From Escherichia coli (GTDB lineage: Bacteria; Pseudomonadota; Gammaproteobacteria; Enterobacterales; Enterobacteriaceae), in NCBI RefSeq assembly GCF_041886205.1, contig NZ_CP169029.1: a DNA stretch of 64,000 nt, one strand, 5' to 3'. The notes under the pieces are model-generated. The model had not been told where the DNA came from. It did no database searches and saw nothing but the letters and a program-made list of their open reading frames with translations. This document shows, one piece after another, positions 1-28,428 of the stretch (position 1 is its first letter; each line of letters starts with the position of its first letter). Position numbers and translations under genes: made by a program.

Positions 1-1
1 C

Positions 2-739
2 GGCAAAATCAACTGGGGCATCGGCATAGGCCTTGCGGGAAGTACCTACAATAACAATTACCCGGAAGACCAGGCAGTGAAAAACTTTGTTGTGGCGAAT
101 ATCACAGGATCGGATTGTCGGCAGTTGATCCATGTTGAAAATGGTAAACATTTTGTTATTCGTAATATCAAAGCCAGCAATATCACGCCGGATTTCAGTA
201 AGAAAGCAGGTATTGATAACGCGACGGTCGCTATTTACGGTTGTGAGAATTTCGTGATTGATAATATTGAAATGATTAATAGCGCCGGGATGTTAATCGG
301 CTATGGGGTAATTAAAGGCAAATATCTCTCGATACCGCAAAATTTCCGAGTGAATAATATTCAGCTGGATAACACCCATCTTGCTTATAAATTGCGCGGT
401 ATCCAAATCTCCGCCGGGAATGCTGTCTCCTTTGTGGCGCTGACTAACATTGAGATGAAGCGTGCCTCGCTTGAGCTACACAACAAACCGCAACATCTTT
501 TTATGCGAAATATCAAGGTGATGCAGGAATCCTCAGTTGGACCCGCATTGAGCATGAACTTCGACATGCGCAAAGACGTTCGCGGCGTGTTTATGGCGAA
601 AAAAGAAACACTGCTGTCTCTTGCAAATGTTCATGCGGTGAATGAAAGAGGGCAAAGCTCCGTCGATATCGACAGGATTAATCACCATATTGTTAATGTG
701 GAAAAGATTAACTTTAGATTGCCGGAACGGAGAGAGTAG
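2..739 (+). CDS. wcaM: colanic acid biosynthesis protein WcaM, C-terminal part (gene starts upstream of the window)
   Basis: Frame is open from the window edge to the stop at 739; lies immediately upstream of gne/galF as at the colanic-acid/O-antigen junction; repetitive beta-helix-like sequence. Confidence 0.55.
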
Positions 740-896
740 ATTTGCGACCATTCATAAACTTACTGGATATAATGTTCTAAAAGATTATAATCCTCACACT
801 AACTGTTAAAGCTGGGGCTGGGCAGCATTGACTACTCAGGGAAGGTACTCATCTTTATCTTGTGTTTCTTACGTAACAACCAGACTAAAGTGATTT

Positions 897-1892
897 ATGA
901 ACGATAACGTTTTGCTCATAGGAGCTTCCGGATTCGTAGGAACCCGACTACTTGAAACGGCAATTGCTGACTTTAATATCAAGAACCTGGACAAACAGCA
1001 GAGCCACTTTTATCCAGAAATCACACAGATTGGTGATGTTCGTGATCAACAGGCACTCGACCAGGCGTTAGCCGGTTTTGACACTGTTGTGCTACTGGCA
1101 GCGGAACACCGCGATGACGTCAGCCCTACTTCTCTCTATTATGATGTCAACGTTCAGGGTACCCGCAATGTGCTGGCGGCCATGGAAAAAAATGGCGTTA
1201 AAAATATCATCTTTACCAGTTCCGTTGCTGTTTATGGTTTGAACAAACACAACCCTGACGAAAACCATCCACACGATCCCTTCAACCACTACGGCAAAAG
1301 TAAGTGGCAGGCAGAGGAAGTGCTGCGTGAATGGTATAACAAAGCACCAACAGAACGTTCATTAACCATCATCCGTCCTACCGTTATCTTCGGTGAACGG
1401 AACCGCGGTAACGTCTATAACTTGCTGAAACAGATCGCTGGCGGCAAGTTTATGATGGTGGGCGCAGGGACTAACTATAAGTCCATGGCTTATGTTGGAA
1501 ACATTGTTGAGTTTATCAAGTACAAACTGAAGAATGTTGCCGCAGGTTACGAGGTTTATAACTACGTTGATAAGCCAGACCTGAACATGAACCAGTTGGT
1601 TGCTGAAGTTGAACAAAGCCTGAACAAAAAGATCCCTTCTATGCACTTGCCTTACCCACTAGGAATGCTGGGTGGATATTGCTTTGATATCCTGAGCAAA
1701 ATTACGGGCAAAAAATACGCTGTCAGCTCTGTGCGCGTGAAAAAATTCTGCGCAACAACACAGTTTGACGCAACGAAAGTGCATTCTTCAGGTTTTGTGG
1801 CACCGTATACGCTGTCGCAAGGTCTGGATCGAACTCTGCAGTATGAATTCGTCCATGCCAAAAAAGACGACATAACGTTTGTTTCTGAGTAA
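897..1892 (+). CDS. gne: UDP-N-acetylglucosamine 4-epimerase (NAD-dependent epimerase/dehydratase family)
   Basis: 331 aa with N-terminal GxxGxxG Rossmann motif (LLIGASGFVGTRL); located between wcaM and galF as in O55/O157-type strains. Confidence 0.7.
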   Translation: MNDNVLLIGASGFVGTRLLETAIADFNIKNLDKQQSHFYPEITQIGDVRDQQALDQALAGFDTVVLLAAEHRDDVSPTSLYYDVNVQGTRNVLAAMEKNGVKNIIFTSSVAVYGLNKHNPDENHPHDPFNHYGKSKWQAEEVLREWYNKAPTERSLTIIRPTVIFGERNRGNVYNLLKQIAGGKFMMVGAGTNYKSMAYVGNIVEFIKYKLKNVAAGYEVYNYVDKPDLNMNQLVAEVEQSLNKKIPSMHLPYPLGMLGGYCFDILSKITGKKYAVSSVRVKKFCATTQFDATKVHSSGFVAPYTLSQGLDRTLQYEFVHAKKDDITFVSE

Positions 1893-2134
1893 TGCAGACG
1901 AGTCAGAGAAAAAAGGACCAGGTTGGACTACGATTATTCGGAAAGAGGTACTGATTAAATTATCAGTATGTGGATTTCCGAGTAATCCGAGTAACCCAGA
2001 TGCTGATGGTGTGTAGTGTTATCGTAAGGTTTAATCAAAGTTATGCGGAACTAAGCTTTGGTATATAGCCATAACGTTTGGCTAACCTATGGCAATAATT
2101 TACGCACTATCAGCCACTTAGAGGTAGGAAAAGA

Positions 2135-3028
2135 ATGACGAATTTAAAAGCAGTTATACCGGTAGCAGGTCTTGGGATGCATATGTTGCCTGCCACTAAG
2201 GCGATTCCCAAAGAGATGCTACCGATCGTCGACAAGCCAATGATTCAGTACATTGTTGACGAGATTGTGGCTGCAGGGATCAAAGAAATCCTCCTGGTAA
2301 CTCACGCGTCCAAGAACGCAGTCGAAAACCACTTCGACACCTCTTATGAATTAGAATCTCTCCTTGAACAGCGCGTGAAGCGTCAACTACTGGCGGAAGT
2401 ACAATCTATCTGTCCGCCGGGCGTGACCATTATGAACGTGCGTCAGGGTGAACCTTTAGGTTTAGGCCACTCCATTTTATGTGCGCGACCTGCCATTGGT
2501 GACAATCCATTTGTCGTGGTGCTGCCAGACGTTGTGATCGACGACGCCAGCGCCGACCCGTTGCGTTACAACCTTGCTGCCATGATTGCGCGCTTCAATG
2601 AAACGGGCCGTAGCCAGGTGCTGGCAAAACGTATGCCGGGTGACCTCTCTGAATACTCCGTCATCCAGACCAAAGAACCGCTGGATCGTGAAGGTAAAGT
2701 CAGCCGCATTGTTGAATTTATCGAAAAACCGGATCAGCCGCAGACGCTGGACTCAGACATAATGGCCGTTGGTCGCTATGTGCTTTCTGCCGATATTTGG
2801 CCGGAACTTGAACGCACTCAGCCTGGTGCATGGGGACGTATTCAGCTGACTGATGCCATTGCTGAACTGGCGAAAAAACAGTCCGTTGATGCCATGCTGA
2901 TGACAGGTGACAGCTACGACTGCGGTAAAAAAATGGGTTATATGCAGGCGTTTGTGAAGTATGGACTACGCAACTTGAAAGAAGGGGCGAAGTTCCGCAA
3001 AGGTATCGAGAAGCTGTTAAGCGAATAA
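2135..3028 (+). CDS. galF: UTP-glucose-1-phosphate uridylyltransferase paralog GalF
   Basis: 297 aa; conserved GalU/GalF N-terminus ([34 protein letters not shown]); conserved position upstream of the O-antigen cluster. Confidence 0.9.
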
Positions 3029-3257
3029 TGAAAATCTGACCGAATGTAACGGTTGATAAGGAAATAATAACGGCAGTGAAAAACTATAGATCAATAAATA
3101 TCACTGCTGTTGAGCGTTTATAATTAACTATGCTACCAATGAATAAATAGTGTGCAGATATGTATTTTTTGTTTGGTAGTCTTGTTTCTCCCTCTGAATA
3201 ATAAGATAATAAACGCTTGGAGATGATTTTTTTAACATGGATTATCATTTCGTACAC

Positions 3258-3296
3258 TGGTAGCGATTAAGCCAGGGGCGGTAGCGTGCATAAATT
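3258..3296 (+). promoter_or_regulatory. JUMPstart element with ops site (GGCGGTAGCGTG at about 3277-3288) for RfaH-dependent antitermination
   Basis: ops consensus read directly in the galF-wbdN intergenic region, preceded by the tggtagcg direct repeat typical of JUMPstart. Confidence 0.8.
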
Positions 3297-3346
3297 TTAA
3301 TGCTTATCAAAACTATTAGCATTAAAAATATATAAGAAATTCTCAA

Positions 3347-4129
3347 ATGAACAAAGAAACCGTTTCAATAATTATGCCCGTTTACAATGGGGCCAAAACT
3401 ATAATCTCATCAGTAGAATCAATTATACATCAATCTTATCAAGATTTTGTTTTGTATATCATTGACGATTGTAGCACCGATGATACATTTTCATTAATCA
3501 ACAGTCGATACAAAAACAATCAGAAAATAAGAATATTGCGTAACAAGACAAATTTAGGTGTTGCAGAAAGTCGAAATTATGGAATAGAAATGGCCACGGG
3601 GAAATATATTTCTTTTTGTGATGCGGATGATTTGTGGCACGAGAAAAAATTAGAGCGTCAAATCGAAGTGTTAAATAATGAATGTGTAGATGTGGTATGT
3701 TCTAATTATTATGTTATAGATAACAAAAGAAATATTGTTGGCGAAGTTAATGCTCCTCATGTGATAAATTATAGAAAAATGCTCATGAAAAACTACATAG
3801 GGAATTTGACAGGAATCTATAATGCCAACAAATTGGGTAAGTTTTATCAAAAAAAGATTGGTCACGAGGATTATTTGATGTGGCTGGAAATAATTAATAA
3901 AACAAATGGTGCTATTTGTATTCAAGATAATCTGGCGTATTACATGCGTTCAAATAATTCACTATCGGGTAATAAAATTAAAGCTGCAAAATGGACATGG
4001 AGTATATATAGAGAACATTTATATTTGTCCTTTCCAAAAACATTATATTATTTTTTATTATATGCTTCAAATGGAGTCATGAAAAAAATAACACATTCAC
4101 TATTAAGGAGAAAGGAGACTAAAAAGTGA
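3347..4129 (+). CDS. wbdN: family-2 glycosyltransferase (O157 O-unit assembly)
   Basis: 260 aa; GT2 N-terminal motif (VSIIMPVYNG ... IIDDCSTD ... DADD); first gene after JUMPstart; AT-rich. Confidence 0.75.
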   Translation: MNKETVSIIMPVYNGAKTIISSVESIIHQSYQDFVLYIIDDCSTDDTFSLINSRYKNNQKIRILRNKTNLGVAESRNYGIEMATGKYISFCDADDLWHEKKLERQIEVLNNECVDVVCSNYYVIDNKRNIVGEVNAPHVINYRKMLMKNYIGNLTGIYNANKLGKFYQKKIGHEDYLMWLEIINKTNGAICIQDNLAYYMRSNNSLSGNKIKAAKWTWSIYREHLYLSFPKTLYYFLLYASNGVMKKITHSLLRRKETKK

Positions 4130-5310
4130 AGTCAGCGGCTAAGTTGATTTTTTTATTCCTATTTACACTTTATAGTCTCCAGTTGTATGGGGTTATCATA
4201 GATGATCGTATAACAAATTTTGATACAAAGGTATTAACTAGTATTATAATTATATTTCAGATTTTTTTTGTTTTATTATTTTATCTAACGATTATAAATG
4301 AAAGAAAACAGCAGAAAAAATTTATCGTGAACTGGGAGCTAAAGTTAATACTCGTTTTCCTTTTTGTGACTATAGAAATTGCTGCTGTAGTTTTATTTCT
4401 TAAAGAAGGTATTCCTATATTTGATGATGATCCAGGGGGGGCTAAACTTAGAATAGCTGAAGGTAATGGACTTTACATTAGATATATTAAGTATTTTGGT
4501 AATATAGTTGTGTTTGCATTAATTATTCTTTATGATGAGCATAAATTCAAACAGAGGACCATCATATTTGTATATTTTACAACGATTGCTTTATTTGGTT
4601 ATCGTTCTGAATTGGTGTTGCTCATTCTTCAATATATATTGATTACCAATATCCTGTCAAAGGATAACCGTAATCCTAAAATAAAAAGAATAATAGGGTA
4701 TTTTTTATTGGTAGGGGTTGTATGCTCGTTGTTTTATCTAAGTTTAGGACAAGACGGAGAACAAAATGACTCATATAATAATATGTTAAGGATAATTAAT
4801 AGGTTAACAATAGAGCAAGTTGAAAGTGTTCCATATGTTGTTTCTGAATCTATTAAGAACGATTTCTTTCCGACACCAGAGTTAGAAAAGGAATTAAAAG
4901 CAATAATAAATAGAATACAGGGAATAAAGCATCAAGACTTATTTTATGGAGAACGGTTACATAAACAAGTATTTGGAGACATGGGAGCAAATTTTTTATC
5001 AGTTACTACGTATGGAGCAGAACTATTAGTTTTTTTTGGTTTTCTCTGTGTATTCATTATCCCTTTAGGGATATATATACCTTTTTATCTTTTAAAGAGA
5101 ATGAAAAAAACCCATAGCTCGATAAACTGCGCATTCTATTCATATATCATTATGATTTTATTGCAATACTTAGTGGCTGGGAATGCATCGGCCTTCTTTT
5201 TTGGTCCTTTTCTCTCCGTATTGATAATGTGTACTCCTCTGATCTTATTGCATGATACGTTAAAGAGATTATCACAAAATGAAAATATCAGTTATAACTG
5301 TGACTTATAA
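4126..5310 (+). CDS. wzy: O-antigen polymerase Wzy
   Basis: 394 aa, highly hydrophobic multi-spanning membrane protein, very AT-rich, position matches O157 cluster order. Confidence 0.75.
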   Translation: MKSAAKLIFLFLFTLYSLQLYGVIIDDRITNFDTKVLTSIIIIFQIFFVLLFYLTIINERKQQKKFIVNWELKLILVFLFVTIEIAAVVLFLKEGIPIFDDDPGGAKLRIAEGNGLYIRYIKYFGNIVVFALIILYDEHKFKQRTIIFVYFTTIALFGYRSELVLLILQYILITNILSKDNRNPKIKRIIGYFLLVGVVCSLFYLSLGQDGEQNDSYNNMLRIINRLTIEQVESVPYVVSESIKNDFFPTPELEKELKAIINRIQGIKHQDLFYGERLHKQVFGDMGANFLSVTTYGAELLVFFGFLCVFIIPLGIYIPFYLLKRMKKTHSSINCAFYSYIIMILLQYLVAGNASAFFFGPFLSVLIMCTPLILLHDTLKRLSQNENISYNCDL

Positions 5311-6025
5311 TAATGCTGAAGGGTTAGAAAAAACTTTAAGTAGTTTATCAATTTTAAAAATAAAACCTTTTGAGATTATTATAGTTGATGGCGGCTCTAC
5401 AGATGGAACGAATCGTGTCATTAGTAGATTTACTAGTATGAATATTACACATGTTTATGAAAAAGATGAAGGGATATATGATGCGATGAATAAGGGTCGA
5501 ATGTTGGCCAAAGGCGACTTAATACATTATTTAAACGCCGGCGATAGCGTAATTGGAGATATATATAAAAATATCAAAGAGCCATGTTTGATTAAAGTTG
5601 GCCTTTTCGAAAATGATAAACTTCTGGGATTTTCTTCTATAACCCATTCAAATACAGGGTATTGTCATCAAGGGGTGATTTTCCCAAAGAATCATTCAGA
5701 ATATGATCTAAGGTATAAAATATGTGCTGATTATAAGCTTATTCAAGAGGTGTTTCCTGAAGGGTTAAGATCTCTATCTTTGATTACTTCGGGTTATGTA
5801 AAATATGATATGGGGGGAGTATCTTCAAAAAAAAGAATTTTAAGAGATAAAGAGCTTGCCAAAATTATGTTTGAAAAAAACAAAAAAAACCTTATTAAGT
5901 TTATTCCAATTTCAATAATCAAAATTTTATTCCCTGAACGTTTAAGAAGAGTATTGCGGAAAATGCAATATATTTGTCTAACTTTATTCTTCATGAAGAA
6001 TAGTTCACCATATGATAATGAATAA
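5279..6025 (+). CDS. wbdO: family-2 glycosyltransferase
   Basis: 248 aa; GT2 motifs (ISVITVTYNN ... IIIVDGGSTDGT ... DAMNKG); position in O157 order. Confidence 0.75.
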   Translation: MKISVITVTYNNAEGLEKTLSSLSILKIKPFEIIIVDGGSTDGTNRVISRFTSMNITHVYEKDEGIYDAMNKGRMLAKGDLIHYLNAGDSVIGDIYKNIKEPCLIKVGLFENDKLLGFSSITHSNTGYCHQGVIFPKNHSEYDLRYKICADYKLIQEVFPEGLRSLSLITSGYVKYDMGGVSSKKRILRDKELAKIMFEKNKKNLIKFIPISIIKILFPERLRRVLRKMQYICLTLFFMKNSSPYDNE

Positions 6026-7403
6026 AATCAAAAAAATACTTAAATTTTGCACTTTAAAAAAATATGATACATCAAGTGCTTTAGGTAGAGAACAGGAAAG
6101 GTACAGGATTATATCCTTGTCTGTTATTTCAAGTTTGATTAGTAAAATACTCTCACTACTTTCTCTTATATTAACTGTAAGTTTAACTTTACCTTATTTA
6201 GGACAAGAGAGATTTGGTGTATGGATGACTATTACCAGTCTTGGTGCTGCTCTGACATTTTTGGACTTAGGTATAGGAAATGCATTAACAAACAGGATCG
6301 CACATTCATTTGCGTGTGGCAAAAATTTAAAGATGAGTCGGCAAATTAGTGGTGGGCTCACTTTGCTGGCTGGATTATCGTTTGTCATAACTGCAATATG
6401 CTATATTACTTCTGGCATGATTGATTGGCAACTAGTAATAAAAGGTATAAACGAGAATGTGTATGCAGAGTTACAACACTCAATTAAAGTCTTTGTAATC
6501 ATATTTGGACTTGGAATTTATTCAAATGGTGTGCAAAAAGTTTATATGGGAATACAAAAAGCCTATATAAGTAATATTGTTAATGCCATATTTATATTGT
6601 TATCTATTATTACTCTAGTAATATCGTCGAAACTACATGCGGGACTACCAGTTTTAATTGTCAGCACTCTTGGTATTCAATACATATCGGGAATCTATTT
6701 AACAATTAATCTTATTATAAAGCGATTAATAAAGTTTACAAAAGTTAACATACATGCTAAAAGAGAAGCTCCATATTTGATATTAAATGGTTTTTTCTTT
6801 TTTATTTTACAGTTAGGCACTCTGGCAACATGGAGTGGTGATAACTTTATAATATCTATAACATTGGGTGTTACTTATGTTGCTGTTTTTAGCATTACAC
6901 AGAGATTATTTCAAATATCTACGGTCCCTCTTACGATTTATAACATCCCGTTATGGGCTGCTTATGCAGATGCTCATGCACGCAATGATACTCAATTTAT
7001 AAAAAAGACGCTCAGAACATCATTGAAAATAGTGGGTATTTTATCATTCTTATTGGCCTTCATATTAGTAGTGTTCGGTAGTGAAGTCGTTAATATTTGG
7101 ACAGAAGGAAAGATTCAGGTACCTCGAACATTCATAATAGCTTATGCTTTATGGTCTGTTATTGATGCTTTTTCGAATACATTTGCAAGCTTTTTAAATG
7201 GTTTGAACATAGTTAAACAACAAATGCTTGCTGTTGTAACATTGATATTGATCGCAATTCCAGCAAAATACATCATAGTTAGCCATTTTGGGTTAACTGT
7301 TATGTTGTACTGCTTCATTTTTATATATATTGTAAATTACTTTATATGGTATAAATGTAGTTTTAAAAAACATATCGATAGACAGTTAAATATAAGAGGA
7401 TGA
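6012..7403 (+). CDS. wzx: O-antigen flippase Wzx
   Basis: 463 aa polytopic membrane protein with about 12 predicted TM segments; AT-rich; position in O157 order. Confidence 0.75.
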   Translation: MIMNKIKKILKFCTLKKYDTSSALGREQERYRIISLSVISSLISKILSLLSLILTVSLTLPYLGQERFGVWMTITSLGAALTFLDLGIGNALTNRIAHSFACGKNLKMSRQISGGLTLLAGLSFVITAICYITSGMIDWQLVIKGINENVYAELQHSIKVFVIIFGLGIYSNGVQKVYMGIQKAYISNIVNAIFILLSIITLVISSKLHAGLPVLIVSTLGIQYISGIYLTINLIIKRLIKFTKVNIHAKREAPYLILNGFFFFILQLGTLATWSGDNFIISITLGVTYVAVFSITQRLFQISTVPLTIYNIPLWAAYADAHARNDTQFIKKTLRTSLKIVGILSFLLAFILVVFGSEVVNIWTEGKIQVPRTFIIAYALWSVIDAFSNTFASFLNGLNIVKQQMLAVVTLILIAIPAKYIIVSHFGLTVMLYCFIFIYIVNYFIWYKCSFKKHIDRQLNIRG

Positions 7404-7405
7404 AA

Positions 7406-8500
7406 ATGAAATATATACCAGTTTACCAACCGTCATTGACAGGAAAAGAAAAAGAATATGTAAATGAATGTCTGGACTCAACGTGGATTTCATCAAAAGG
7501 AAACTATATTCAGAAGTTTGAAAATAAATTTGCGGAACAAAACCATGTGCAATATGCAACTACTGTAAGTAATGGAACGGTTGCTCTTCATTTAGCTTTG
7601 TTAGCGTTAGGTATATCGGAAGGAGATGAAGTTATTGTTCCAACACTGACATATATAGCATCAGTTAATGCTATAAAATACACAGGAGCCACCCCCATTT
7701 TCGTTGATTCAGATAATGAAACTTGGCAAATGTCTGTTAGTGACATAGAACAAAAAATCACTAATAAAACTAAAGCTATTATGTGTGTCCATTTATACGG
7801 ACATCCATGTGATATGGAACAAATTGTAGAACTGGCCAAAAGTAGAAATTTGTTTGTAATTGAAGATTGCGCTGAAGCCTTTGGTTCTAAATATAAAGGT
7901 AAATATGTGGGAACATTTGGAGATATTTCTACTTTTAGCTTTTTTGGAAATAAAACTATTACTACAGGTGAAGGTGGAATGGTTGTCACGAATGACAAAA
8001 CACTTTATGACCGTTGTTTACATTTTAAAGGCCAAGGATTAGCTGTACATAGGCAATATTGGCATGACGTTATAGGCTACAATTATAGGATGACAAATAT
8101 CTGCGCTGCTATAGGATTAGCCCAGTTAGAACAAGCTGATGATTTTATATCACGAAAACGTGAAATTGCTGATATTTATAAAAAAAATATCAACAGTCTT
8201 GTACAAGTCCACAAGGAAAGTAAAGATGTTTTTCACACTTATTGGATGGTCTCAATTCTAACTAGGACCGCAGAGGAAAGAGAGGAATTAAGGAATCACC
8301 TTGCAGATAAACTCATCGAAACAAGGCCAGTTTTTTACCCTGTCCACACGATGCCAATGTACTCGGAAAAATATCAAAAGCACCCTATAGCTGAGGATCT
8401 TGGTTGGCGTGGAATTAATCTACCTAGTTTCCCCAGCCTATCGAATGAGCAAGTTATTTATATTTGTGAATCTATTAACGAATTTTATAGTGATAAATAG
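7406..8500 (+). CDS. per: GDP-perosamine synthase (GDP-4-keto-6-deoxymannose 4-aminotransferase, DegT/AHBA family)
   Basis: Pyridoxal-phosphate aminotransferase of the DegT family (TTVSNGTVALHLAL ... FSFFGNKTITTGEGG); 364 aa from the MKYIPVYQP start; hallmark of the O157 perosamine pathway. Confidence 0.8.
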   Translation: MKYIPVYQPSLTGKEKEYVNECLDSTWISSKGNYIQKFENKFAEQNHVQYATTVSNGTVALHLALLALGISEGDEVIVPTLTYIASVNAIKYTGATPIFVDSDNETWQMSVSDIEQKITNKTKAIMCVHLYGHPCDMEQIVELAKSRNLFVIEDCAEAFGSKYKGKYVGTFGDISTFSFFGNKTITTGEGGMVVTNDKTLYDRCLHFKGQGLAVHRQYWHDVIGYNYRMTNICAAIGLAQLEQADDFISRKREIADIYKKNINSLVQVHKESKDVFHTYWMVSILTRTAEEREELRNHLADKLIETRPVFYPVHTMPMYSEKYQKHPIAEDLGWRGINLPSFPSLSNEQVIYICESINEFYSDK

Positions 8501-8524
8501 CCTAAAATATTGTAAAGGTCATTC

Positions 8525-9739
8525 ATGAAAATTGCGTTGAATTCAGATGGATTTTACGAGTGGGGCGGTGGAATTGATTTTATTAAATATATTCTGTCAA
8601 TATTAGAAACGAAACCAGAAATATGTATCGATATTCTTTTACCGAGAAATGATATACATTCTCTTATAAGAGAAAAAGCATTTCCTTTTAAAAGTATATT
8701 AAAAGCAATTTTAAAGAGGGAAAGGCCTCGATGGATTTCATTAAATAGATTTAATGAGCAATACTATAGAGATGCCTTTACACAAAATAATATAGAGACG
8801 AATCTTACCTTTATTAAAAGTAAGAGCTCTGCCTTTTATTCATATTTTGATAGTAGCGATTGTGATGTTATTCTTCCTTGCATGCGTGTTCCTTCGGGAA
8901 ATTTGAATAAAAAAGCATGGATTGGTTATATTTATGACTTTCAACACTGTTACTATCCTTCATTTTTTAGTAAGCGAGAAATAGATCAAAGGAATGTGTT
9001 TTTTAAATTGATGCTCAATTGCGCTAACAATATTATTGTTAATGCACATTCAGTTATTACCGATGCAAATAAATATGTTGGGAATTATTCTGCAAAACTA
9101 CATTCTCTTCCATTTAGTCCATGCCCTCAATTAAAATGGTTTGCTGATTACTCTGGTAATATTGCCAAATATAATATTGACAAGGATTATTTTATAATTT
9201 GCAATCAATTTTGGAAACATAAAGATCATGCAACTGCTTTTAGGGCATTTAAAATTTATACTGAATATAATCCTGATGTTTATTTAGTATGCACGGGAGC
9301 TACTCAAGATTATCGATTCCCTGGATATTTTAATGAATTGATGGTTTTGGCAAAAAAGCTCGGAATTGAATCGAAAATTAAGATATTAGGGCATATACCT
9401 AAACTTGAACAAATTGAATTAATCAAAAATTGCATTGCTGTAATACAACCAACCTTATTTGAAGGCGGGCCTGGAGGGGGGGTAACATTTGACGCTATTG
9501 CATTAGGGAAAAAAGTTATACTATCTGACATAGATGTCAATAAAGAAGTTAATTGCGGTGATGTATATTTCTTTCAGGCAAAAAACCATTATTCATTAAA
9601 TGACGCGATGGTAAAAGCTGATGAATCTAAAATTTTTTATGAACCTACAACTCTGATAGAATTGGGTCTCAAAAGACGCAATGCGTGTGCAGATTTTCTT
9701 TTAGATGTTGTGAAACAAGAAATTGAATCCCGATCTTAA
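8525..9739 (+). CDS. wbdP: family-1 (GT4-like) glycosyltransferase
   Basis: 404 aa; C-terminal EGGPGG-type motif of retaining glycosyltransferases; position in O157 order. Confidence 0.7.
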
Positions 9740-9758
9740 TATATTCAAGAGGTATATA

Positions 9759-10877
9759 ATGACTAAAGTCGCTCTTATTACAGGTGTAACTGGACAAGAT
9801 GGATCTTATCTAGCTGAGTTTTTGCTTGATAAAGGGTATGAAGTTCATGGTATCAAACGCCGAGCCTCATCTTTTAATACAGAACGCATAGACCATATTT
9901 ATCAAGATCCACATGGTTCTAACCCAAATTTTCACTTGCACTATGGAGATCTGACTGATTCATCTAACCTCACTAGAATTCTAAAGGAGGTACAGCCAGA
10001 TGAAGTATATAATTTAGCTGCTATGAGTCACGTAGCAGTTTCTTTTGAGTCTCCAGAATATACAGCCGATGTCGATGCAATTGGTACATTACGTTTACTG
10101 GAAGCAATTCGCTTTTTAGGATTGGAAAACAAAACGCGTTTCTATCAAGCTTCAACCTCAGAATTATATGGACTTGTTCAGGAAATCCCTCAAAAAGAAT
10201 CCACCCCTTTTTATCCTCGTTCCCCTTATGCAGTTGCAAAACTTTACGCATATTGGATCACGGTAAATTATCGAGAGTCATATGGTATTTATGCATGTAA
10301 TGGTATATTGTTCAATCATGAATCTCCACGCCGTGGAGAAACGTTTGTAACAAGGAAAATTACTCGAGGACTTGCAAATATTGCACAAGGCTTGGAATCA
10401 TGTTTGTATTTAGGGAATATGGATTCGTTACGAGATTGGGGACATGCAAAAGATTATGTTAGAATGCAATGGTTGATGTTACAACAGGAGCAACCCGAAG
10501 ATTTTGTGATTGCAACAGGAGTCCAATACTCAGTCCGTCAGTTTGTCGAAATGGCAGCAGCACAACTTGGTATTAAGATGAGCTTTGTTGGTAAAGGAAT
10601 CGAAGAAAAAGGCATTGTAGATTCGGTTGAAGGACAGGATGCTCCAGGTGTGAAACCAGGTGATGTCATTGTTGCTGTTGATCCTCGTTATTTCCGACCA
10701 GCTGAAGTTGATACTTTGCTTGGAGATCCGAGCAAAGCTAATCTCAAACTTGGTTGGAGACCAGAAATTACTCTTGCTGAAATGATTTCTGAAATGGTTG
10801 CCAAAGATCTTGAAGCCGCTAAAAAACATTCTCTTTTAAAATCGCATGGTTTTTCTGTAAGCTTAGCTCTGGAATGA
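9759..10877 (+). CDS. gmd: GDP-mannose 4,6-dehydratase
   Basis: 372 aa from [35 protein letters not shown], the canonical Gmd N-terminus. Confidence 0.95.
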
Positions 10878-10879
10878 TG

Positions 10880-11845
10880 ATGAATAAGCAACGTATTTTT
10901 ATTGCTGGTCACCAAGGAATGGTTGGATCAGCTATTACCCGACGCCTCAAACAACGTGATGATGTTGAGTTGGTTTTGCGTACTCGGGATGAATTGAACT
11001 TGTTGGATAGTAGCGCTGTTTTGGATTTTTTTTCTTCACAGAAAATCGACCAGGTTTATTTGGCAGCAGCAAAAGTCGGAGGTATTTTAGCTAACAGTTC
11101 TTATCCTGCCGATTTTATATATGAGAATATAATGATAGAGGCGAATGTCATTCATGCTGCCCACAAAAATAATGTAAATAAACTGCTTTTCCTCGGTTCG
11201 TCGTGTATTTATCCTAAGTTAGCACACCAACCGATTATGGAAGACGAATTATTACAAGGGAAACTTGAGCCAACAAATGAACCTTATGCTATCGCAAAAA
11301 TTGCAGGTATTAAATTATGTGAATCTTATAACCGTCAGTTTGGGCGTGATTACCGTTCAGTAATGCCAACCAATCTTTATGGTCCAAATGACAATTTTCA
11401 TCCAAGTAATTCTCATGTGATTCCGGCGCTTTTGCGCCGCTTTCATGATGCTGTGGAAAACAATTCTCCGAATGTTGTTGTTTGGGGAAGTGGTACTCCA
11501 AAGCGTGAATTCTTACATGTAGATGATATGGCTTCTGCAAGCATTTATGTCATGGAGATGCCATACGATATATGGCAAAAAAATACTAAAGTAATGTTGT
11601 CTCATATCAATATTGGAACAGGTATTGACTGCACGATTTGTGAGCTTGCGGAAACAATAGCAAAAGTTGTAGGTTATAAAGGGCATATTACGTTCGATAC
11701 AACAAAGCCCGATGGAGCCCCTCGAAAACTACTTGATGTAACGCTTCTTCATCAACTAGGTTGGAATCATAAAATTACCCTTCACAAGGGTCTTGAAAAT
11801 ACATACAACTGGTTTCTTGAAAACCAACTTCAATATCGGGGGTAA
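10880..11845 (+). CDS. fcl: GDP-L-fucose synthase family (GDP-4-keto-6-deoxymannose 3,5-epimerase/4-reductase); in the O157 pathway this step feeds perosamine/fucose branch
   Basis: 321 aa; conserved Fcl N-terminus ([16 protein letters not shown]) and short-chain dehydrogenase fold. Confidence 0.9.
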
Positions 11846-11847
11846 TA

Positions 11848-12357
11848 ATGTTTTTACATTCCCAAGACTTTGCCACAATTGTAAGGTCTACTCCTCTTAT
11901 TTCTATAGATTTGATTGTGGAAAACGAGTTTGGCGAAATTTTGCTAGGAAAACGAATCAACCGCCCGGCACAGGGCTATTGGTTCGTTCCTGGTGGTAGG
12001 GTGTTGAAAGATGAAAAATTGCAGACAGCCTTTGAACGATTGACAGAAATCGAACTAGGAATTCGTTTGCCTCTCTCTGTGGGTAAGTTTTATGGTATCT
12101 GGCAGCACTTCTACGAAGACAATAGTATGGGGGGAGACTTTTCAACGCATTATATAGTTATAGCATTCCTTCTTAAATTACAACCAAACATTTTGAAATT
12201 ACCGAAGTCACAACATAATGCTTATTGCTGGCTATCGCGAGCAAAGCTGATAAATGATGACGATGTGCATTATAATTGTCGCGCATATTTTAACAATAAA
12301 ACAAATGATGCGATTGGCTTAGATAATAAGGATATAATATGTCTGATGCGCCAATAA
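11848..12357 (+). CDS. gmm: GDP-mannose mannosyl hydrolase (Nudix)
   Basis: 169 aa; Nudix-like core ([29 protein letters not shown]); follows fcl as in GDP-sugar operons. Confidence 0.85.
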
Positions 12358-13787
12358 TTGCTGTAGTTATGGCCGGTGGTACAGGCAGTCGTCTTTGGCC
12401 ACTTTCTCGTGAACTATATCCAAAGCAGTTTTTACAACTCTCTGGTGATAACACCTTGTTACAAACGACTTTGCTACGACTTTCAGGCCTATCATGTCAA
12501 AAACCATTAGTGATAACAAATGAACAGCATCGCTTTGTTGTGGCTGAACAGTTAAGGGAAATAAATAAATTAAATGGTAATATTATTCTAGAACCATGCG
12601 GGCGAAATACTGCACCAGCAATAGCGATATCTGCGTTTCATGCGTTAAAACGTAATCCTCAGGAAGATCCATTGCTTCTAGTTCTTGCGGCAGACCACGT
12701 TATAGCTAAAGAAAGTGTTTTCTGTGATGCTATTAAAAATGCAACTCCCATCGCTAATCAAGGTAAAATTGTAACGTTTGGAATTATACCAGAATATGCT
12801 GAAACTGGTTATGGGTATATTGAGAGAGGTGAACTATCTGTACCGCTTCAAGGGCATGAAAATACTGGTTTTTATTATGTAAATAAGTTTGTTGAAAAGC
12901 CTAATCGTGAAACCGCAGAATTGTATGTGACTTCTGGTAATCACTATTGGAATAGTGGAATATTCATGTTTAAGGCATCTGTTTATCTTGAGGAATTGAG
13001 AAAATTTAGACCTGACATTTACAATGTTTGTGAACAGGTTGCCTCATCCTCATACATTGATCTAGATTTTATTCGATTATCAAAAGAACAATTTCAAGAT
13101 TGTCCTGCTGAATCTATTGATTTTGCTGTAATGGAAAAAACAGAAAAATGTGTTGTATGCCCTGTTGATATTGGTTGGAGTGACGTTGGATCTTGGCAAT
13201 CGTTATGGGACATTAGTCTAAAATCGAAAACAGGAGATGTATGTAAAGGTGATATATTAACCTATGATACTAAGAATAATTATATCTACTCTGAGTCAGC
13301 GTTGGTAGCCGCCATTGGAATTGAAGATATGGTTATCGTGCAAACTAAAGATGCCGTTCTTGTGTCTAAAAAGAGTGATGTACAGCATGTAAAAAAAATA
13401 GTCGAAATGCTTAAATTGCAGCAACGTACAGAGTATATTAGTCATCGTGAAGTTTTCCGACCATGGGGAAAATTTGATTCGATTGACCAAGGTGAGCGAT
13501 ACAAAGTCAAGAAAATTATTGTGAAACCTGGTGAGGGGCTTTCTTTAAGGATGCATCACCATCGTTCTGAACATTGGATCGTGCTTTCTGGTACAGCAAA
13601 AGTAACCCTTGGCGATAAAACTAAACTAGTCACCGCAAATGAATCGATATACATTCCCCTTGGCGCAGCGTATAGTCTTGAGAATCCGGGCATAATCCCT
13701 CTTAATCTTATTGAAGTCAGTTCAGGGGATTATTTGGGAGAGGATGATATTATAAGACAGAAAGAACGTTACAAACATGAAGATTAA
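12339..13787 (+). CDS. manC: mannose-1-phosphate guanylyltransferase / mannose-6-phosphate isomerase (bifunctional)
   Basis: 482 aa; N-terminal nucleotidyltransferase motif ([22 protein letters not shown]) and C-terminal cupin domain. Confidence 0.95.
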
Positions 13788-13790
13788 CAT

Positions 13791-15161
13791 ATGAAATCTT
13801 TAACCTGCTTTAAAGCCTATGATATTCGCGGGAAATTAGGCGAAGAACTGAATGAAGATATTGCCTGGCGCATTGGGCGTGCCTATGGCGAATTTCTCAA
13901 ACCGAAAACCATTGTTTTAGGCGGTGATGTCCGCCTCACCAGCGAAACCTTAAAACTGGCGCTGGCGAAAGGTTTACAGGATGCGGGCGTCGATGTGCTG
14001 GATATCGGTATGTCCGGCACCGAAGAGATCTATTTCGCCACGTTCCATCTCGGCGTGGATGGCGGCATTGAAGTTACCGCCAGCCATAATCCGATGGATT
14101 ATAACGGCATGAAACTGGTGCGCGAAGGGGCTCGCCCAATCAGCGGTGATACCGGACTGCGCGACGTCCAGCGTCTGGCAGAAGCCAACGACTTTCCTCC
14201 CGTCGATGAAACCAAACGCGGTCGCTATCAGCAAATCAACCTGCGTGACGCTTACGTTGATCACCTGTTCGGTTATATCAATGTCAAAAACCTCACGCCG
14301 CTCAAGCTGGTGATTAACTCCGGGAATGGCGCAGCGGGTCCGGTGGTGGACGCCATTGAAGCCCGCTTTAAAACCCTCGGCGCGCCCGTGGAATTGATCA
14401 AAGTGCACAACACGCCCGACGGCAATTTCCCCAACGGTATTCCTAATCCGCTGCTGCCTGAATGCCGCGACGACACCCGCAATGCGGTCATCAAACACGG
14501 CGCGGATATGGGCATTGCCTTTGATGGCGATTTTGACCGCTGTTTTCTGTTTGACGAAAAAGGGCAGTTTATCGAGGGCTACTACATTGTCGGCCTGCTG
14601 GCAGAAGCGTTCCTCGAAAAAAATCCCGGCGCGAAGATCATCCACGATCCGCGTCTCTCCTGGAACACCGTTGATGTGGTGACTGCCGCAGGCGGCACCC
14701 CGGTAATGTCGAAAACCGGACACGCCTTTATTAAAGAACGTATGCGCAAGGAAGACGCCATCTACGGTGGCGAAATGAGCGCCCACCATTACTTCCGTGA
14801 TTTCGCTTACTGCGACAGCGGCATGATCCCGTGGCTGCTGGTCGCCGAACTGGTGTGCCTGAAAGGAAAAACGCTGGGCGAACTGGTGCGCGACCGGATG
14901 GCTGCGTTTCCGGCAAGCGGTGAGATCAACAGCAAACTGGCGCAACCCGTTGAGGCGATTAATCGCGTCGAACAGCATTTTAGCCGTGAGGCGCTGGCGG
15001 TGGATCGTACCGATGGCATCAGCATGACCTTTGCCGACTGGCGCTTTAACCTGCGCTCTTCCAACACCGAACCGGTGGTGCGGTTGAATGTGGAATCACG
15101 CGGTGATGTAAAGCTAATGGAAAAGAAAACTAAAGCTCTTCTTAAATTGCTAAGTGAGTGA
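13791..15161 (+). CDS. manB: phosphomannomutase
   Basis: 456 aa; phosphohexomutase active-site motif ([13 protein letters not shown]); notably higher GC than neighbouring cluster genes. Confidence 0.95.
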
Positions 15162-15499
15162 TTATTTACATTAATCATTAAGCGTATTTAAGATTATATT
15201 AAAGTAATGTTATTGCGGTATATGATGAATATGTGGGCTTTTTTATGTATAACAACTATACCGCAACTTTATCTAGGAAAAGATTAATAGAAATAAAGTT
15301 TTGTACTGACCAATTTGCATTTCACGTCACGATTGAGACGTTCCTTTGCTTAAGACATTTTTTCATCGCTTATGTAATAACAAATGTGCCTTATATAAAA
15401 AGGAGAACAAAATGGAACTTAAAATAATTGAGACAATAGATTTTTATTATCCCTGTTTACGATATTATAGCCAAAGTTGTATCCTGCATCAGTCCTGCA

Positions 15500-16300
15500 A
15501 TATTTCACGAGTGCTTTGTTAACTGAATACATGTCTGCCATTTTCCAGATGATAACGACGTCATCACAATTGATGGTAAAACACTTCGGCACACTTATGA
15601 CAAGAGTCGTCGCAGAGGAGTGGTTCATGTCATTAGTGTGTTTCAGCAATGCACAGTCTGGTCCTCGGATAGATCAAGACGGATGAGAAACCTAATGCGT
15701 TCACAGTTATTCATGAACTTTCTAAAATGATGGGTATTAAAGGAAAAATAATCATAACTGATGCGATGGCTTGCCAGAAAGATATTGCAGAGAAGATATA
15801 AAAACAGAGATGTGATTATTTATTCGCTGTAAAAGGAAATAAGAGTCGGCTTAATAGAGTCTTTGAGGAGATATTTACGCTGAAAGAATTAAATAATCCA
15901 AAACATAACAGTTACGCAATTAGTGAAAAGAGGCACGGCAGAGACGATGTCCGTCTTCATATTGTTTGAGATGCTCCTGATGAGCTTATTGATTTCACGT
16001 TTGAATGGAAAGGGCTGCAGAATTTATGAATGGCAGTCCACTTTCTCTCAATAATAGCAGAGCAAAAGAAAGAATCCGAAATGACGATCAAATATTATAT
16101 TAGATCTGCTGCTTTAACCGCAGAGAAGTTCGCCACAGTAAATCGAAATCACTGGCGCATGGAGAATAAGTTGCACAGTAGCCTGATGTGGTAATGAATG
16201 AAATCGACTATAATATAAGAAGGCGAGTTGCATTCGAATGATTTTCTAGAATGCGGCACATCGCTACTAATATCTGACAATGATAATGTATTCAAGGCAG
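15500..16300 (+). pseudogene. decayed H-repeat/ISAs1-family transposase remnant (multiple stops and frameshifts)
   Basis: Translation shows ISAs1/H-repeat transposase blocks ([25 protein letters not shown] ... [12 protein letters not shown] ... YLFAVKGN ... [19 protein letters not shown] ... DELIDFTFEWKGL) broken over three frames; sits between manB and wbdR. Confidence 0.75.
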
Positions 16301-16423
16301 GATTATCATGTAAGATGCGAAAAGCAGTCATGGACAGAAACTTCCTAGCGTCAGGCATTGCAGCGTGCGGGCTTTCATAATCTTGCATTGGTTTTGATAA
16401 GATATTTCTTTGGAGATGGGAAA

Positions 16424-17089
16424 ATGAATTTGTATGGTATTTTTGGTGCTGGAAGTTATGGTAGAGAAACAATACCCATTCTAAATCAACAAATAAAGCA
16501 AGAATGTGGTTCTGACTATGCTCTGGTTTTTGTGGATGATGTTTTGGCAGGAAAGAAAGTTAATGGTTTTGAAGTGCTTTCAACCAACTGCTTTCTAAAA
16601 GCCCCTTATTTAAAAAAGTATTTTAATGTTGCTATTGCTAATGATAAGATACGACAGAGAGTGTCTGAGTCAATATTATTACACGGGGTTGAACCAATAA
16701 CTATAAAACATCCAAATAGCGTTGTTTATGATCATACTATGATAGGTAGTGGCGCTATTATTTCTCCCTTTGTTACAATATCTACTAATACTCATATAGG
16801 GAGGTTTTTTCATGCAAACATATACTCATACGTTGCACATGATTGTCAAATAGGAGACTATGTTACATTTGCTCCTGGGGCTAAATGTAATGGATATGTT
16901 GTTATTGAAGACAATGCATATATAGGCTCGGGTGCAGTAATTAAGCAGGGTGTTCCTAATCGCCCACTTATTATTGGCGCGGGAGCCATTATAGGTATGG
17001 GGGCTGTTGTCACTAAAAGTGTTCCTGCCGGTATAACTGTGTGCGGAAATCCAGCAAGAGAAATGAAAAGATCGCCAACATCTATTTAA
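16424..17089 (+). CDS. wbdR: perosamine N-acetyltransferase (left-handed beta-helix/hexapeptide acyltransferase)
   Basis: 221 aa from MNLYGIFGAGSYGRE; hexapeptide-repeat C-terminus (IGSGAVIKQGV ... IGAGAIIGMGAVV); last gene of the O157 cluster. Confidence 0.8.
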   Translation: MNLYGIFGAGSYGRETIPILNQQIKQECGSDYALVFVDDVLAGKKVNGFEVLSTNCFLKAPYLKKYFNVAIANDKIRQRVSESILLHGVEPITIKHPNSVVYDHTMIGSGAIISPFVTISTNTHIGRFFHANIYSYVAHDCQIGDYVTFAPGAKCNGYVVIEDNAYIGSGAVIKQGVPNRPLIIGAGAIIGMGAVVTKSVPAGITVCGNPAREMKRSPTSI

Positions 17090-17289
17090 AGGGAATGCGG
17101 AAACACGTTCCAAATGGGACTAATGTTTAAAATATATATAATTTCGCTAATTTACTAAATTATGGCTTCTTTTTAAGCTATCCTTTACTTAGTTATTACT
17201 GATACAGCATGAAATTTATAATACTCTGATACATTTTTATACGTTATTCAAGCCGCATATCTAGCGGTAACCCCTGACAGGAGTAAACA

Positions 17290-18696
17290 ATGTCAAAGCA
17301 ACAGATCGGCGTAGTCGGTATGGCAGTGATGGGGCGCAACCTAGCGCTCAACATCGAAAGCCGTGGTTATACCGTCTCTATTTTCAACCGCTCCCGTGAG
17401 AAGACGGAAGAAGTGATTGCCGAAAATCCAGGCAAGAAACTGGTTCCTTACTATACGGTGAAAGAGTTTGTTGAATCTCTGGAAACGCCTCGTCGCATCC
17501 TGTTAATGGTGAAAGCAGGTGCAGGCACGGATGCTGCTATTGATTCCCTCAAGCCGTACCTCGATAAAGGTGACATCATCATTGATGGTGGTAACACCTT
17601 CTTCCAGGACACCATTCGTCGTAACCGTGAGCTTTCTGCCGAAGGCTTTAACTTCATCGGTACCGGTGTTTCCGGCGGAGAAGAAGGCGCGCTGAAAGGT
17701 CCTTCCATTATGCCTGGTGGGCAGAAAGAAGCCTATGAACTGGTTGCGCCGATCCTGACCAAAATCGCCGCAGTGGCTGAAGACGGTGAGCCATGCGTTA
17801 CCTATATTGGTGCCGATGGCGCAGGTCACTATGTGAAGATGGTTCACAACGGTATTGAATACGGAGATATGCAACTGATTGCTGAAGCCTATTCTCTGCT
17901 TAAAGGTGGCCTGAACCTCACCAACGAAGAACTGGCGCAGACGTTTACCGAGTGGAATAACGGTGAACTGAGCAGCTACCTGATCGACATCACCAAAGAT
18001 ATCTTCACCAAAAAAGATGAAGACGGTAACTACCTGGTTGATGTGATCCTGGATGAAGCGGCTAACAAAGGTACCGGTAAATGGACCAGCCAGAGCGCAC
18101 TGGATCTCGGCGAACCGCTGTCGCTGATTACCGAGTCTGTGTTTGCACGTTATATCTCTTCTCTGAAAGATCAGCGTGTTGCCGCATCTAAAGTTCTCTC
18201 TGGCCCGCAAGCACAGCCAGCAGGCGACAAGGCTGAGTTCATCGAAAAAGTTCGCCGTGCGCTGTATCTGGGCAAAATCGTTTCTTACGCCCAGGGCTTC
18301 TCTCAGCTGCGTGCTGCGTCTGAAGAGTACAACTGGGATCTGAACTACGGCGAAATCGCGAAGATTTTCCGTGCTGGCTGCATCATTCGTGCGCAGTTCC
18401 TGCAGAAAATTACCGATGCTTATGCCGAAAATCCGCAGATCGCTAACCTGCTGCTGGCTCCGTACTTCAAGCAAATTGCCGATGATTACCAGCAGGCGCT
18501 GCGTGATGTCGTTGCTTATGCGGTACAGAACGGTATCCCGGTTCCGACCTTCGCCGCTGCGGTTGCCTATTACGATAGCTACCGTGCCGCTGTTCTGCCT
18601 GCGAACCTGATCCAGGCACAGCGTGACTATTTCGGTGCACATACTTATAAGCGCATTGATAAAGAAGGTGTGTTCCATACTGAATGGCTGGATTAA
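17290..18696 (+). CDS. gnd: 6-phosphogluconate dehydrogenase (decarboxylating)
   Basis: 468 aa; canonical N-terminus [30 protein letters not shown]. Confidence 0.98.
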
Positions 18697-18723
18697 TCTG
18701 ATTTAACCAACAGTAAAATTGAG

Positions 18724-18754
18724 GCCCGGCGTATATTGCACCGGGCTTTTTTTT
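18724..18754 (+). terminator. rho-independent terminator after gnd
   Basis: GC hairpin gcccgg...ccgggc followed by a run of 8 T. Confidence 0.6.
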
Positions 18755-18935
18755 GCCATTTATCTTATAGACTAAATTTCACTGCTTAATATTAACTTAA
18801 TAAATATCAGCTATTCTTATAAAGAAAATCTGAATTGTTTTTCGTAGCGTTGACCAGCTAATAACGTAGCGTTAAAACATTTAGCTCTTATCAGGATGCT
18901 AAAAACATCATGATTCACAGTTAAGTTAATTCTGA

Positions 18936-20111
<1,176 letters not shown>

Positions 20112-20257
20112 CATCTTGTTATCAGGGCGATTTTCGCCCTGATTGTCTGATGTTCCCTTTGTAATAATTCATTATTTTTATCATTTATCCTATAGCATTC
20201 ATGGCGATTATCGCTAAACTATGGCGACTTAAAATTATTTCGTCCGTTAGGGTAATG

Positions 20258-21235
20258 ATGAGAGTAGAAAATAATAATGTTTCTGGGCAAAACCATGACC
20301 CGGAACAGATTGATTTGATTGATTTACTGGTGCAGTTGTGGCGTGGCAAGATGACAATTATCATCTCTGTCATTGTGGCTATTGCCCTGGCTATAGGGTA
20401 TCTGGCCGTTGCCAAAGAAAAGTGGACTTCCACAGCTATCGTTACTCAACCTGATGTGGGGCAAATCGCTGGTTATAACAATGCCATAAATGTGATTTAT
20501 GGTTCGGCAGCGCCGAAAGTGTCTGAGATCCAGTCGATGTTAATTGGTCGTTTCAGCACGACATTTTCTGCATTAGCGGAAACGCTGGATAATCAGGAAG
20601 AACCTGAAAAACTGACCATTGAGCCTACCGTTAAAAATCAGTCCTTACCTTTAGCGGTTTCTTATGTTGGTGAAACAGCTGAAGGTGCGCAGAAACAGCT
20701 GGCGAAGTATATCCAGCAAGTTGACGACCAGGTAAATGAAGAACTGGAACAAGACCTGAAAGACAACATCGCGCTGCAAATGAAAAACTTGCAGGATTCT
20801 CTGAAGACGCAGGAAGTGGTTGCGCAGGAGCAGAAAGATCTGCGTATCCGTCAGATTCAGGAAGCGTTGCAGTATGCGAATCAGGCGCAGGTGACAAAGC
20901 CGCAGATTCAGCAGACACAGGACGTAACCCAGGATACTATGTTCCTTTTGGGGAGCGAAGCGCTGGAGTCGATGATTAAGCACGAGGCGACTCGTCCGTT
21001 GGTGTTCTCATCAAACTACTATCAGACTCGTCAAAACCTGCTGGATATCGACAATCTTGACGTTGATAAACTTGATATTCATGCTTACCGCTATGTAATG
21101 AAACCGACGTTACCTATTCGTCGCGATAGCCCGAAAAAGGCAATTACCTTGATTCTGGCGGTGCTGCTGGGCGGCATGGTTGGCGCGGGGATTGTGTTGG
21201 GGCGTAACGCTCTGCGTAATTACAACGCGAAGTAA
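20258..21235 (+). CDS. wzzB: O-antigen chain-length determinant (polysaccharide co-polymerase) Wzz
   Basis: About 325 aa from MRVENNNVSGQNHDPEQIDLIDLL; two TM segments flanking a coiled-coil periplasmic domain; C-terminal GGMVGAGIVLGRNALRNY. Confidence 0.95.
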   Translation: MRVENNNVSGQNHDPEQIDLIDLLVQLWRGKMTIIISVIVAIALAIGYLAVAKEKWTSTAIVTQPDVGQIAGYNNAINVIYGSAAPKVSEIQSMLIGRFSTTFSALAETLDNQEEPEKLTIEPTVKNQSLPLAVSYVGETAEGAQKQLAKYIQQVDDQVNEELEQDLKDNIALQMKNLQDSLKTQEVVAQEQKDLRIRQIQEALQYANQAQVTKPQIQQTQDVTQDTMFLLGSEALESMIKHEATRPLVFSSNYYQTRQNLLDIDNLDVDKLDIHAYRYVMKPTLPIRRDSPKKAITLILAVLLGGMVGAGIVLGRNALRNYNAK

Positions 21236-21253
21236 TCTTTGCAGCTTTAAAGA

Positions 21254-21290
21254 AAACGGGCAGGGTGGTGACACCTTGCCCGTTTTTTTT
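21254..21290 (+). terminator. rho-independent terminator after wzz
   Basis: Hairpin aacgggcagggtg...caccttgcccgtt followed by a run of 8 T; a second hairpin (ggatgcga...tcgcatcc) follows at about 21293-21318. Confidence 0.6.
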
Positions 21291-21331
21291 GCCGGATGCG
21301 ACAACAACATCGCATCCGCTTACCCCGCAAC

Positions 21332-21943
21332 TCACTGATGCCGTTTGCGCAGGTTCTCAATCACCGTCGTTAAGTCCAGATCCTGATCCTGCAACAATAC
21401 CAGCAGGTGATACATCAAATCAGATGCCTCGTTGGTCAGCTCAAAGCGGTCATGTACCGTTGCTGCCAGTGCGGTTTCCACGCCTTCTTCGCCCACTTTT
21501 TGCGCAATGCGTTTGGTGCCGCTGGCATACAGTTTGGCAGTGTAAGAGGTTTCCGGGTCGGCAGATTTGCGTTCGGCGAGCAATTGTTCCAGTTGATACA
21601 GGAACAGCCATTGGTGAGCGGTGTCGCCGAAGCAGCTGCTGGTGCCTTTGTGGCAGGTCGGACCGATGGGATTAGCCAGCACTAATAAAGTGTCGTTGTC
21701 GCAGTCCGGTGCAATACTCACCACATTGAGGAAATTGCCCGACGTTTCGCCTTTGGTCCACAGTCGCTGTTTAGTGCGCGAGAAGAAGGTGACTTTGCCG
21801 CTTTCGATGGTTTTGTCTAAGGCTTCCGGGTTCATATAGCCCAGCATTAACACTTCGCCGGATACCGCGTGTTGCACAATCACCGGCATCAGTCCGTCGG
21901 TTTTTTCCCAGTCCAGTTCGCGACGTTGTTGTTCTGTTAACAT
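21332..21943 (-). CDS. hisI: bifunctional phosphoribosyl-AMP cyclohydrolase / phosphoribosyl-ATP pyrophosphatase
   Basis: 203 aa; [38 protein letters not shown], canonical HisIE. Confidence 0.97.
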
Positions 21944-22278: not shown

Positions 22279-22279
22279 A

Positions 22280-27475
<5,196 letters not shown>

Positions 27476-27480
27476 GGCGA

Positions 27481-28380: not shown

Positions 28381-28428
28381 TTTCTTATTCCTCTTTAAAC
28401 CTGTCTGAACCGTTATCAACCGCGCAAT

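Follow-up and report, generated by a model that had tools for sequence, protein, structure and literature searches.

Does the epimerase encoded between wcaM and galF in part of Escherichia coli act on a nucleotide sugar or on a lipid-linked sugar? The question is raised by an open reading frame (ORF) at positions 897..1892 of a 64,000-nucleotide stretch of E. coli DNA (NCBI RefSeq assembly GCF_041886205.1, contig NZ_CP169029.1), which was analysed as a whole and is called the window hereafter. A sequence-only reading of the window had named the gene gne and had seen in it both a supplier of UDP-GalNAc for O units that start with GalNAc and a lineage marker shared by O55/O157-type strains. Here, the ORF is very probably gnu, encoding undecaprenyl-diphospho-N-acetylglucosamine 4-epimerase, with the substrate specificity taken from the literature. 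If the gene is called gne, or its product a supplier of UDP-GalNAc, the wrong pathway is predicted, and the importance of the case therefore lies mainly in correct annotation. The locus around the ORF contains the following features.

1..739, + strand: 3' part of wcaM, the last gene of the colanic acid cluster (NCBIfam NF007517 and TIGR04004, profile positions 245-464, E = 5.5e-145)
897..1892, + strand: gnu (old names gne, Z3206), an ATG..TAA ORF of 331 amino acids encoding an extended SDR, N-acetyl-alpha-D-glucosaminyl-diphospho-undecaprenol 4-epimerase (very probable assignment)
2135..3028, + strand: galF (TIGR01105, 689 bits vs a 659-bit cut-off)
3251..3288, + strand: JUMPstart element with the ops sequence GGCGGTAGCGTG, start of the O-antigen operon (Rfam RF01707, 39.9 bits vs a gathering score of 35)
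3347..4129, + strand: first glycosyltransferase gene of the O157 cluster, GT2 (ORF with 99.9% identity to O157-family clusters, where it is annotated as a family 2 glycosyltransferase)

The ORF fragment ending at 739 corresponds to the C-terminal 220 residues of WcaM according to its profile match. With wcaM ending there and galF starting at 2135, the gene indeed lies between the two, as had been proposed. The further proposal that it stands outside the JUMPstart-driven O-antigen operon is borne out as well: the Rfam scan of positions 1..30000 found a single JUMPstart, located 3' of galF and 5' of the first gene of the O157 cluster (3347), and gnu sits just upstream of galF in the order wcaM-gnu-galF. 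The O-antigen cluster downstream of gnu and galF belongs to the O157 family, and neither an initiating transferase nor a GalE-type gene is found among its annotated genes; gnu thus accompanies a GalNAc-first cluster that lacks an initiating transferase of its own. We take the GT2 gene to be the one called wbdN in the O157 literature, whose product presumably extends the GalNAc-PP-Und made by Gnu. On the + strand, a search for intrinsic terminators gave none after wcaM or after gnu.

That the ORF encodes an NAD-dependent epimerase was already recognised from the sequence, and it does so in intact form: the 331-residue protein matches Pfam PF01370 (NAD-dependent epimerase/dehydratase family) with E = 8.5e-31. 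The NAD-binding motif GASGFVG occupies residues 9-15 and the catalytic YGKSK residues 132-136, while FTSS (residues 106-109) pairs in the alignment with the SSS stretch, the catalytic serine region, of clade A GalE-type enzymes. The protein is thus a short-chain dehydrogenase of the extended type (extended SDR) that has both an NAD-binding motif and a Ser/Tyr/Lys set, for which the alignment suggests Ser109/Tyr132/Lys136. Its calculated mass is 37141.8 Da. Besides the Rossmann strand, no hydrophobic 19-residue window and no transmembrane segment was found in Gnu, nor was there a strongly amphipathic helix that would explain access to a lipid substrate.

The fold is shared with GalE and Gne (clade A), as are the NAD-binding GxxGxxG, the Ser/Tyr/Lys set, and the chemistry of C4 epimerization. 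Beyond these common features, Gnu scores 71.4 bits with the GalE equivalog model TIGR01179 (cut-off 262.3) and 56 bits with NF007956 (cut-off 394), and solved GalE structures mostly align with it just over residues ~45-167. Two clade A GalE-type proteins encoded within O-antigen clusters (in an O86-like and an O130 strain) are 26-29% identical to Gnu over residues 5-196 at most, and clade A proteins contain an RYFNP stretch to which nothing in Gnu corresponds in the alignment. Neither the cut-off of the GalE model nor a full-length similarity that includes the nucleotide-sugar-binding domain is reached. A GalE/Gne-type UDP-sugar epimerase was rejected on the basis of these scores (71 vs 262 bits) and of an identity confined to the N-terminal half, and the comparison with Gne/GalE proteins that had been suggested along with the name gne places the protein outside their clade.

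The best-scoring relatives of Gnu are found elsewhere in the superfamily. HpnA (TIGR03466) is the top NCBIfam model with 95.5 bits vs a cut-off of 367.65, PF01073 (3-beta-hydroxysteroid dehydrogenase) gives an E-value of 3.1e-27, which is merely an overlapping superfamily match, and the structure of the human sterol 3-dehydrogenase NSDHL (6jkg, E = 2.3e-17) ranks above the GalE structures. These SDRs act on hydrophobic or membrane-bound substrates, but their reactions and substrates differ from those of Gnu. Because the scores also lie far below the cut-offs of the HpnA and 3-beta-HSD families, the likeness is a resemblance and not a membership. GnaB/WbpP (clade B UDP-GlcNAcA 4-epimerases) belong to the same superfamily and were once lumped together with Gnu as Gne, but branch as a clade of their own in the published tree; neither WbpP nor WbgU occurs by name among the 60 best solved-structure matches to Gnu. 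Since no NCBIfam model reaches its cut-off on Gnu, the RefSeq name of the protein has no HMM basis that could be tested here.

The substrate has been addressed in the literature. Initially, gne was the name given to the gene that precedes the O157 cluster (Cunneen et al. 2013, PMC3682973). As reported there, Rush et al. (2010) found the O157 enzyme to be inactive on UDP-GlcNAc and to convert Und-PP-GlcNAc to Und-PP-GalNAc, and gnu became the new name of clade D (Cunneen et al. 2013, PMC3682973). A 2019 review of E. coli O antigens gives the same account and places gnu directly upstream of galF. According to these sources, the substrate of Gnu is lipid-linked, in contrast to the nucleotide-linked substrate of Gne/GalE. 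The gene received its first name in a 2002 paper, the title of which speaks of a UDP-GlcNAc C4 epimerase and so conflicts with the later account. The earlier designation as the gne of O55/O157 was therefore right as a historical name, whereas the gene is now gnu and its product falls outside the GalE/Gne clade by sequence.

It is accordingly very improbable that the gene encodes a soluble UDP-GlcNAc 4-epimerase (Gne) supplying UDP-GalNAc, which WecA would then use to start the O unit. Membership in the superfamily of GalE and Gne, the title of the 2002 paper, and one member of the 90% sequence cluster that still bears the name 'UDP-N-acetylglucosamine 4-epimerase' would fit such an enzyme. It is contradicted by the published assays, which as cited by Cunneen et al. 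report no activity of the O157 enzyme on UDP-GlcNAc, by a score far under the GalE equivalog cut-off, and by a C-terminal, nucleotide-sugar-binding half without significant similarity to GalE/Gne. Gene content argues in the same direction. In O86, the upstream gene and an in-cluster GalE-type gene are both required (Cunneen et al. 2013, PMC3682973), and the O130 strain and the O86-like strain each carry gnu together with a genuine GalE-type gene within one locus. If both genes made UDP-GalNAc they would be redundant, which argues against a role of gnu in UDP-GalNAc supply. A published table predicts both genes for O units with two GalNAc residues; for the O157 unit it gives one main-chain GalNAc and a need for gnu. 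Hence, the association with a GalNAc-first O unit that had been claimed holds, whereas the claimed supply of UDP-GalNAc does not, given the cited inactivity on UDP-GlcNAc.

With Gnu as the epimerase of the lipid-linked sugar, the following route to the O157 unit is proposed. WecA (encoded elsewhere in the genome) would act on the cytoplasmic side of the inner membrane and transfer GlcNAc-1-phosphate onto undecaprenyl phosphate. Gnu would then invert C4 of the lipid-linked GlcNAc by NAD-dependent oxidation and re-reduction through a transient 4-keto intermediate, yielding Und-PP-GalNAc. The glycosyltransferases of the O157 cluster would build the remaining O unit on that GalNAc, and the completed unit would be flipped by Wzx and subsequently polymerized by Wzy. 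The epimerization of the lipid-linked first sugar decides which O units can begin with GalNAc, and gnu is thus relevant to O-antigen glyco-engineering and to genome-based prediction of the first sugar.

In the published survey, gnu was present in 33 + 6 = 39 of 115 serogroups, six of them carrying it beyond need, and its presence or absence obeyed the first-sugar rule in 104 of the 115 (Cunneen et al. 2013, PMC3682973). A wider or additional role, in which Gnu acts on other undecaprenyl-diphosphate-linked sugars or on both lipid- and nucleotide-linked GlcNAc, could account for gnu in serogroups that do not need it. Apart from these six serogroups, the UDP-GlcNAc activity named in the 2002 title is a point in its favor. 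Such a role is highly improbable, as it has no direct support, the first-sugar rule fits 104 of the 115 serogroups, and linkage to the recombining O-antigen region is the simpler explanation for surplus carriage.

The assignment as gnu is tied most closely to the characterized enzyme by protein identity. The protein is identical at 331/331 residues in O157:H7 G5295, O55:H7 RM12579, O55 2013C-4465, O104:H4, O157:H16, the O160 strain, and the O86-like strain. With the exception of the variant in the O130 strain, the copies share the RefSeq accession WP_000999466.1, named 'N-acetyl-alpha-D-glucosaminyl-diphospho-ditrans,octacis-undecaprenol 4-epimerase'. RefSeq, UniRef, and NCBI all label the exact 331-residue sequence as the Und-PP-GlcNAc 4-epimerase (Gnu), and the divergent name mentioned above is that of one member of the 90% cluster. 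In a proteome study of O157:H7, the mass listed for Z3206 ('gne') is 37141 Da, equal to the one calculated here; Z3206 was detected there and, like other O-antigen enzymes, showed enrichment in insoluble fractions. By full-length identity, mass, and name, the sequence thus groups with the biochemically characterized O157:H7 enzyme. Gnu of clade D (Cunneen et al. 2013; Z3206 of O157:H7) is the same protein in the same wcaM/galF position with the same GalNAc-first association, and nothing differs at the protein level. The gene is an already well-described one, and nothing changes in what specialists know of it.

At the DNA level, the allele in the window is nearer to that of O55:H7 (1 silent difference) than to the typical O157:H7 allele (7 silent differences). 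The surrounding locus (window 1-3400) is a mosaic with a crossover at about 2762-2820, in the 3' end of galF. Window positions 1-2820 show only 2 differences to O55:H7 RM12579 vs 56 to typical O157:H7, and from 2762 onward the window matches O157 clusters of the O157:H16 type. It follows that a crossover within galF linked the O157 cluster to a wcaM-gnu-galF flank resembling that of O55:H7.

The nine gnu alleles compared differ at 38 nucleotide sites, 37 of which are silent; the sole amino-acid change is A53V in the O130 strain. The gnu genes of Citrobacter and E. coli differ in ~21% of nucleotides (~79% DNA identity) and 7% of residues. As the identical protein is annotated in many genomes and nearly all variable sites are silent, gnu is clearly no chance ORF. 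It has also to be considered whether gnu is a passenger without current function that moves with the O-antigen region. It is less diverse than its flanks and travels with recombining O-antigen clusters, as a passenger might. Nevertheless, the ORF is intact in at least 1307 E. coli genomes, the predominance of silent sites (37/38) is a pattern of purifying selection that refutes a mere passenger, Citrobacter retains 93% amino-acid identity, and the protein is seen in the O157:H7 proteome. We regard a functionless passenger as next to impossible and retain a functional epimerase of the lipid-linked sugar.

The distribution of gnu bears on the claim that it marks the O55/O157 lineage. Of 5426 complete E. 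coli genomes, 1314 carry it and 1312 have wcaM-gnu-galF in one piece, vs about 305 genomes with the O157 cluster. Carriers include O104:H4, O130, O160, and the O86-like strain, and three Citrobacter species show the same gene order with a Gnu of ~93% amino-acid identity. Together with the 39 serogroups of the survey, these numbers show that it is no O55/O157 lineage marker: since many serogroups and Citrobacter carry gnu, it tracks the chemistry of the first sugar and not lineage. The presence of gnu is thus informative about O-unit chemistry, and not about O55/O157 descent. K-12 and most other E. coli genomes have no gnu, so the gene is far from universal at this position, and the suggested look at the same place in K-12 confirmed its absence. 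The wcaM-galF spacer measures 174 bp in K-12 vs 1395 bp here, and the agreement between the two ends 14 bp after the wcaM stop codon, to resume at the ribosome-binding site of galF.

The segment absent from K-12 is flanked by an imperfect direct repeat (GTAGATTTGCGA at 736-747 and GTGGATTTCCGA at 1970-1981, identical at 10 of 12 positions), and the first copy (GTAGATTTGCGA) stands directly after the wcaM stop in K-12. The repeat may be the relic of an insertion or deletion event, or may have arisen by chance. Among the places where gnu was found in the collection of complete E. coli genomes, 1 of 1323 is on a plasmid and not on the chromosome, and a few genomes have two gnu places or truncated copies (e.g., H40 with 51% coverage).

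The spacer between wcaM and gnu (740-896, 157 bp) holds two further features.

762..791, + strand: candidate sigma-70 promoter of gnu (-35-like ACTGGAT/TGGATA with ACTGGAT at 762-768, 16-bp spacer, -10 TATAAT at 786-791)
805..859, + strand: conserved leader blocks (805-827, 830-844, 848-859), invariant in a 4-species alignment

In a promoter consensus scan, the candidate matches at 10 of 12 positions, and both hexamer regions are unchanged between E. coli and the three Citrobacter species; the start region of gnu is likewise conserved in the 4-species alignment. The spacer shows zero differences among 8 E. coli genomes, although in 7 of the 8 the adjoining end of wcaM differs by 3-7% and the divergence of the gnu-galF spacer reaches 6%. 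At the neutral rate, the allele that diverges most should have ~10 differences in 740-896 (P about 6e-5). In the larger collection, 1273 of 1322 genomes have the spacer with an identity of 99% or more. Between Escherichia and Citrobacter it is 79-83% identical, a level that matches coding sequence, in contrast to 59-61% for the gnu-galF spacer. The valley of nucleotide diversity extends over 740-1033, comprising the wcaM-gnu spacer and the first 137 bp of gnu (0 differences in the eight genomes), and the 38 variable sites lie in the rest of gnu beyond 1033.

From this conservation, gnu appears to have its own candidate promoter and leader. The spacer 740-896 has no Rfam match, even at E <= 1, and the folding of the leader is not unusual (z = +0.48). 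A structured RNA leader was considered and rejected, as two Citrobacter substitutions break, instead of compensating, the outer stem of the predicted hairpin. When an exact 20-mer of the leader block was searched in 100,044 species representatives, the sole genuine match was Citrobacter sedlakii, a result with little bearing on more distant genera; the other 7 matches were set aside as chance because these genomes have no Gnu homolog. Tentatively, and with considerable doubt, the blocks at 805-859 might be read as a cis-regulatory leader with a putative binding site for a protein or small RNA. If so, the leader would set the expression of gnu apart from the RfaH/JUMPstart control of the O-antigen operon, and the supply of lipid-linked GalNAc could be kept in step with O-unit synthesis. 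The promoter-like element and the putative leader would be a small addition to the known account of gnu.

Farther along the window, an anomalous stretch of 2375 bp (22276-24650) lies in the his operon at the place expected for the 5' part of hisF, for hisA and hisH, and for most of hisB. It shows no similarity to the native genes, to the 5426 complete E. coli genomes, or to plasmid and phage collections, and the idea of a reversed, complemented, or otherwise recognizable his copy was dropped as no match was obtained anywhere. ORFs longer than 126 codons, Pfam matches, and codon periodicity are all absent from the stretch. In tetranucleotide profile, its correlation with the rest of the window is 0.23, compared with 0.44-0.88 for all other blocks, and the sequence on either side aligns normally (99.9% and 96.6%). 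The stretch is either a non-coding replacement of foreign origin, which if true would abolish histidine synthesis, or an artefact of assembly or artificial origin. The following region (24651-30500), with the remaining his genes, the his leader (Rfam RF00514 at 28427-28550), and the genes after it, is 96.6% identical to E. coli with 102 gap positions. Most genomes fall in a band of 90-95% identity to it, which is unusually divergent for this region.

Among the complete RefSeq E. coli genomes, there is no close match to the whole window 1-64000, and the window apparently derives from an O157 strain whose lineage is absent from that collection. The best match over 1-22275 is 98.8% identical (O157:H16), and the best match over 36001-61000, a region that holds IS66- and ISL3-type elements, is a crow isolate with 98.3% identity at 94% coverage.
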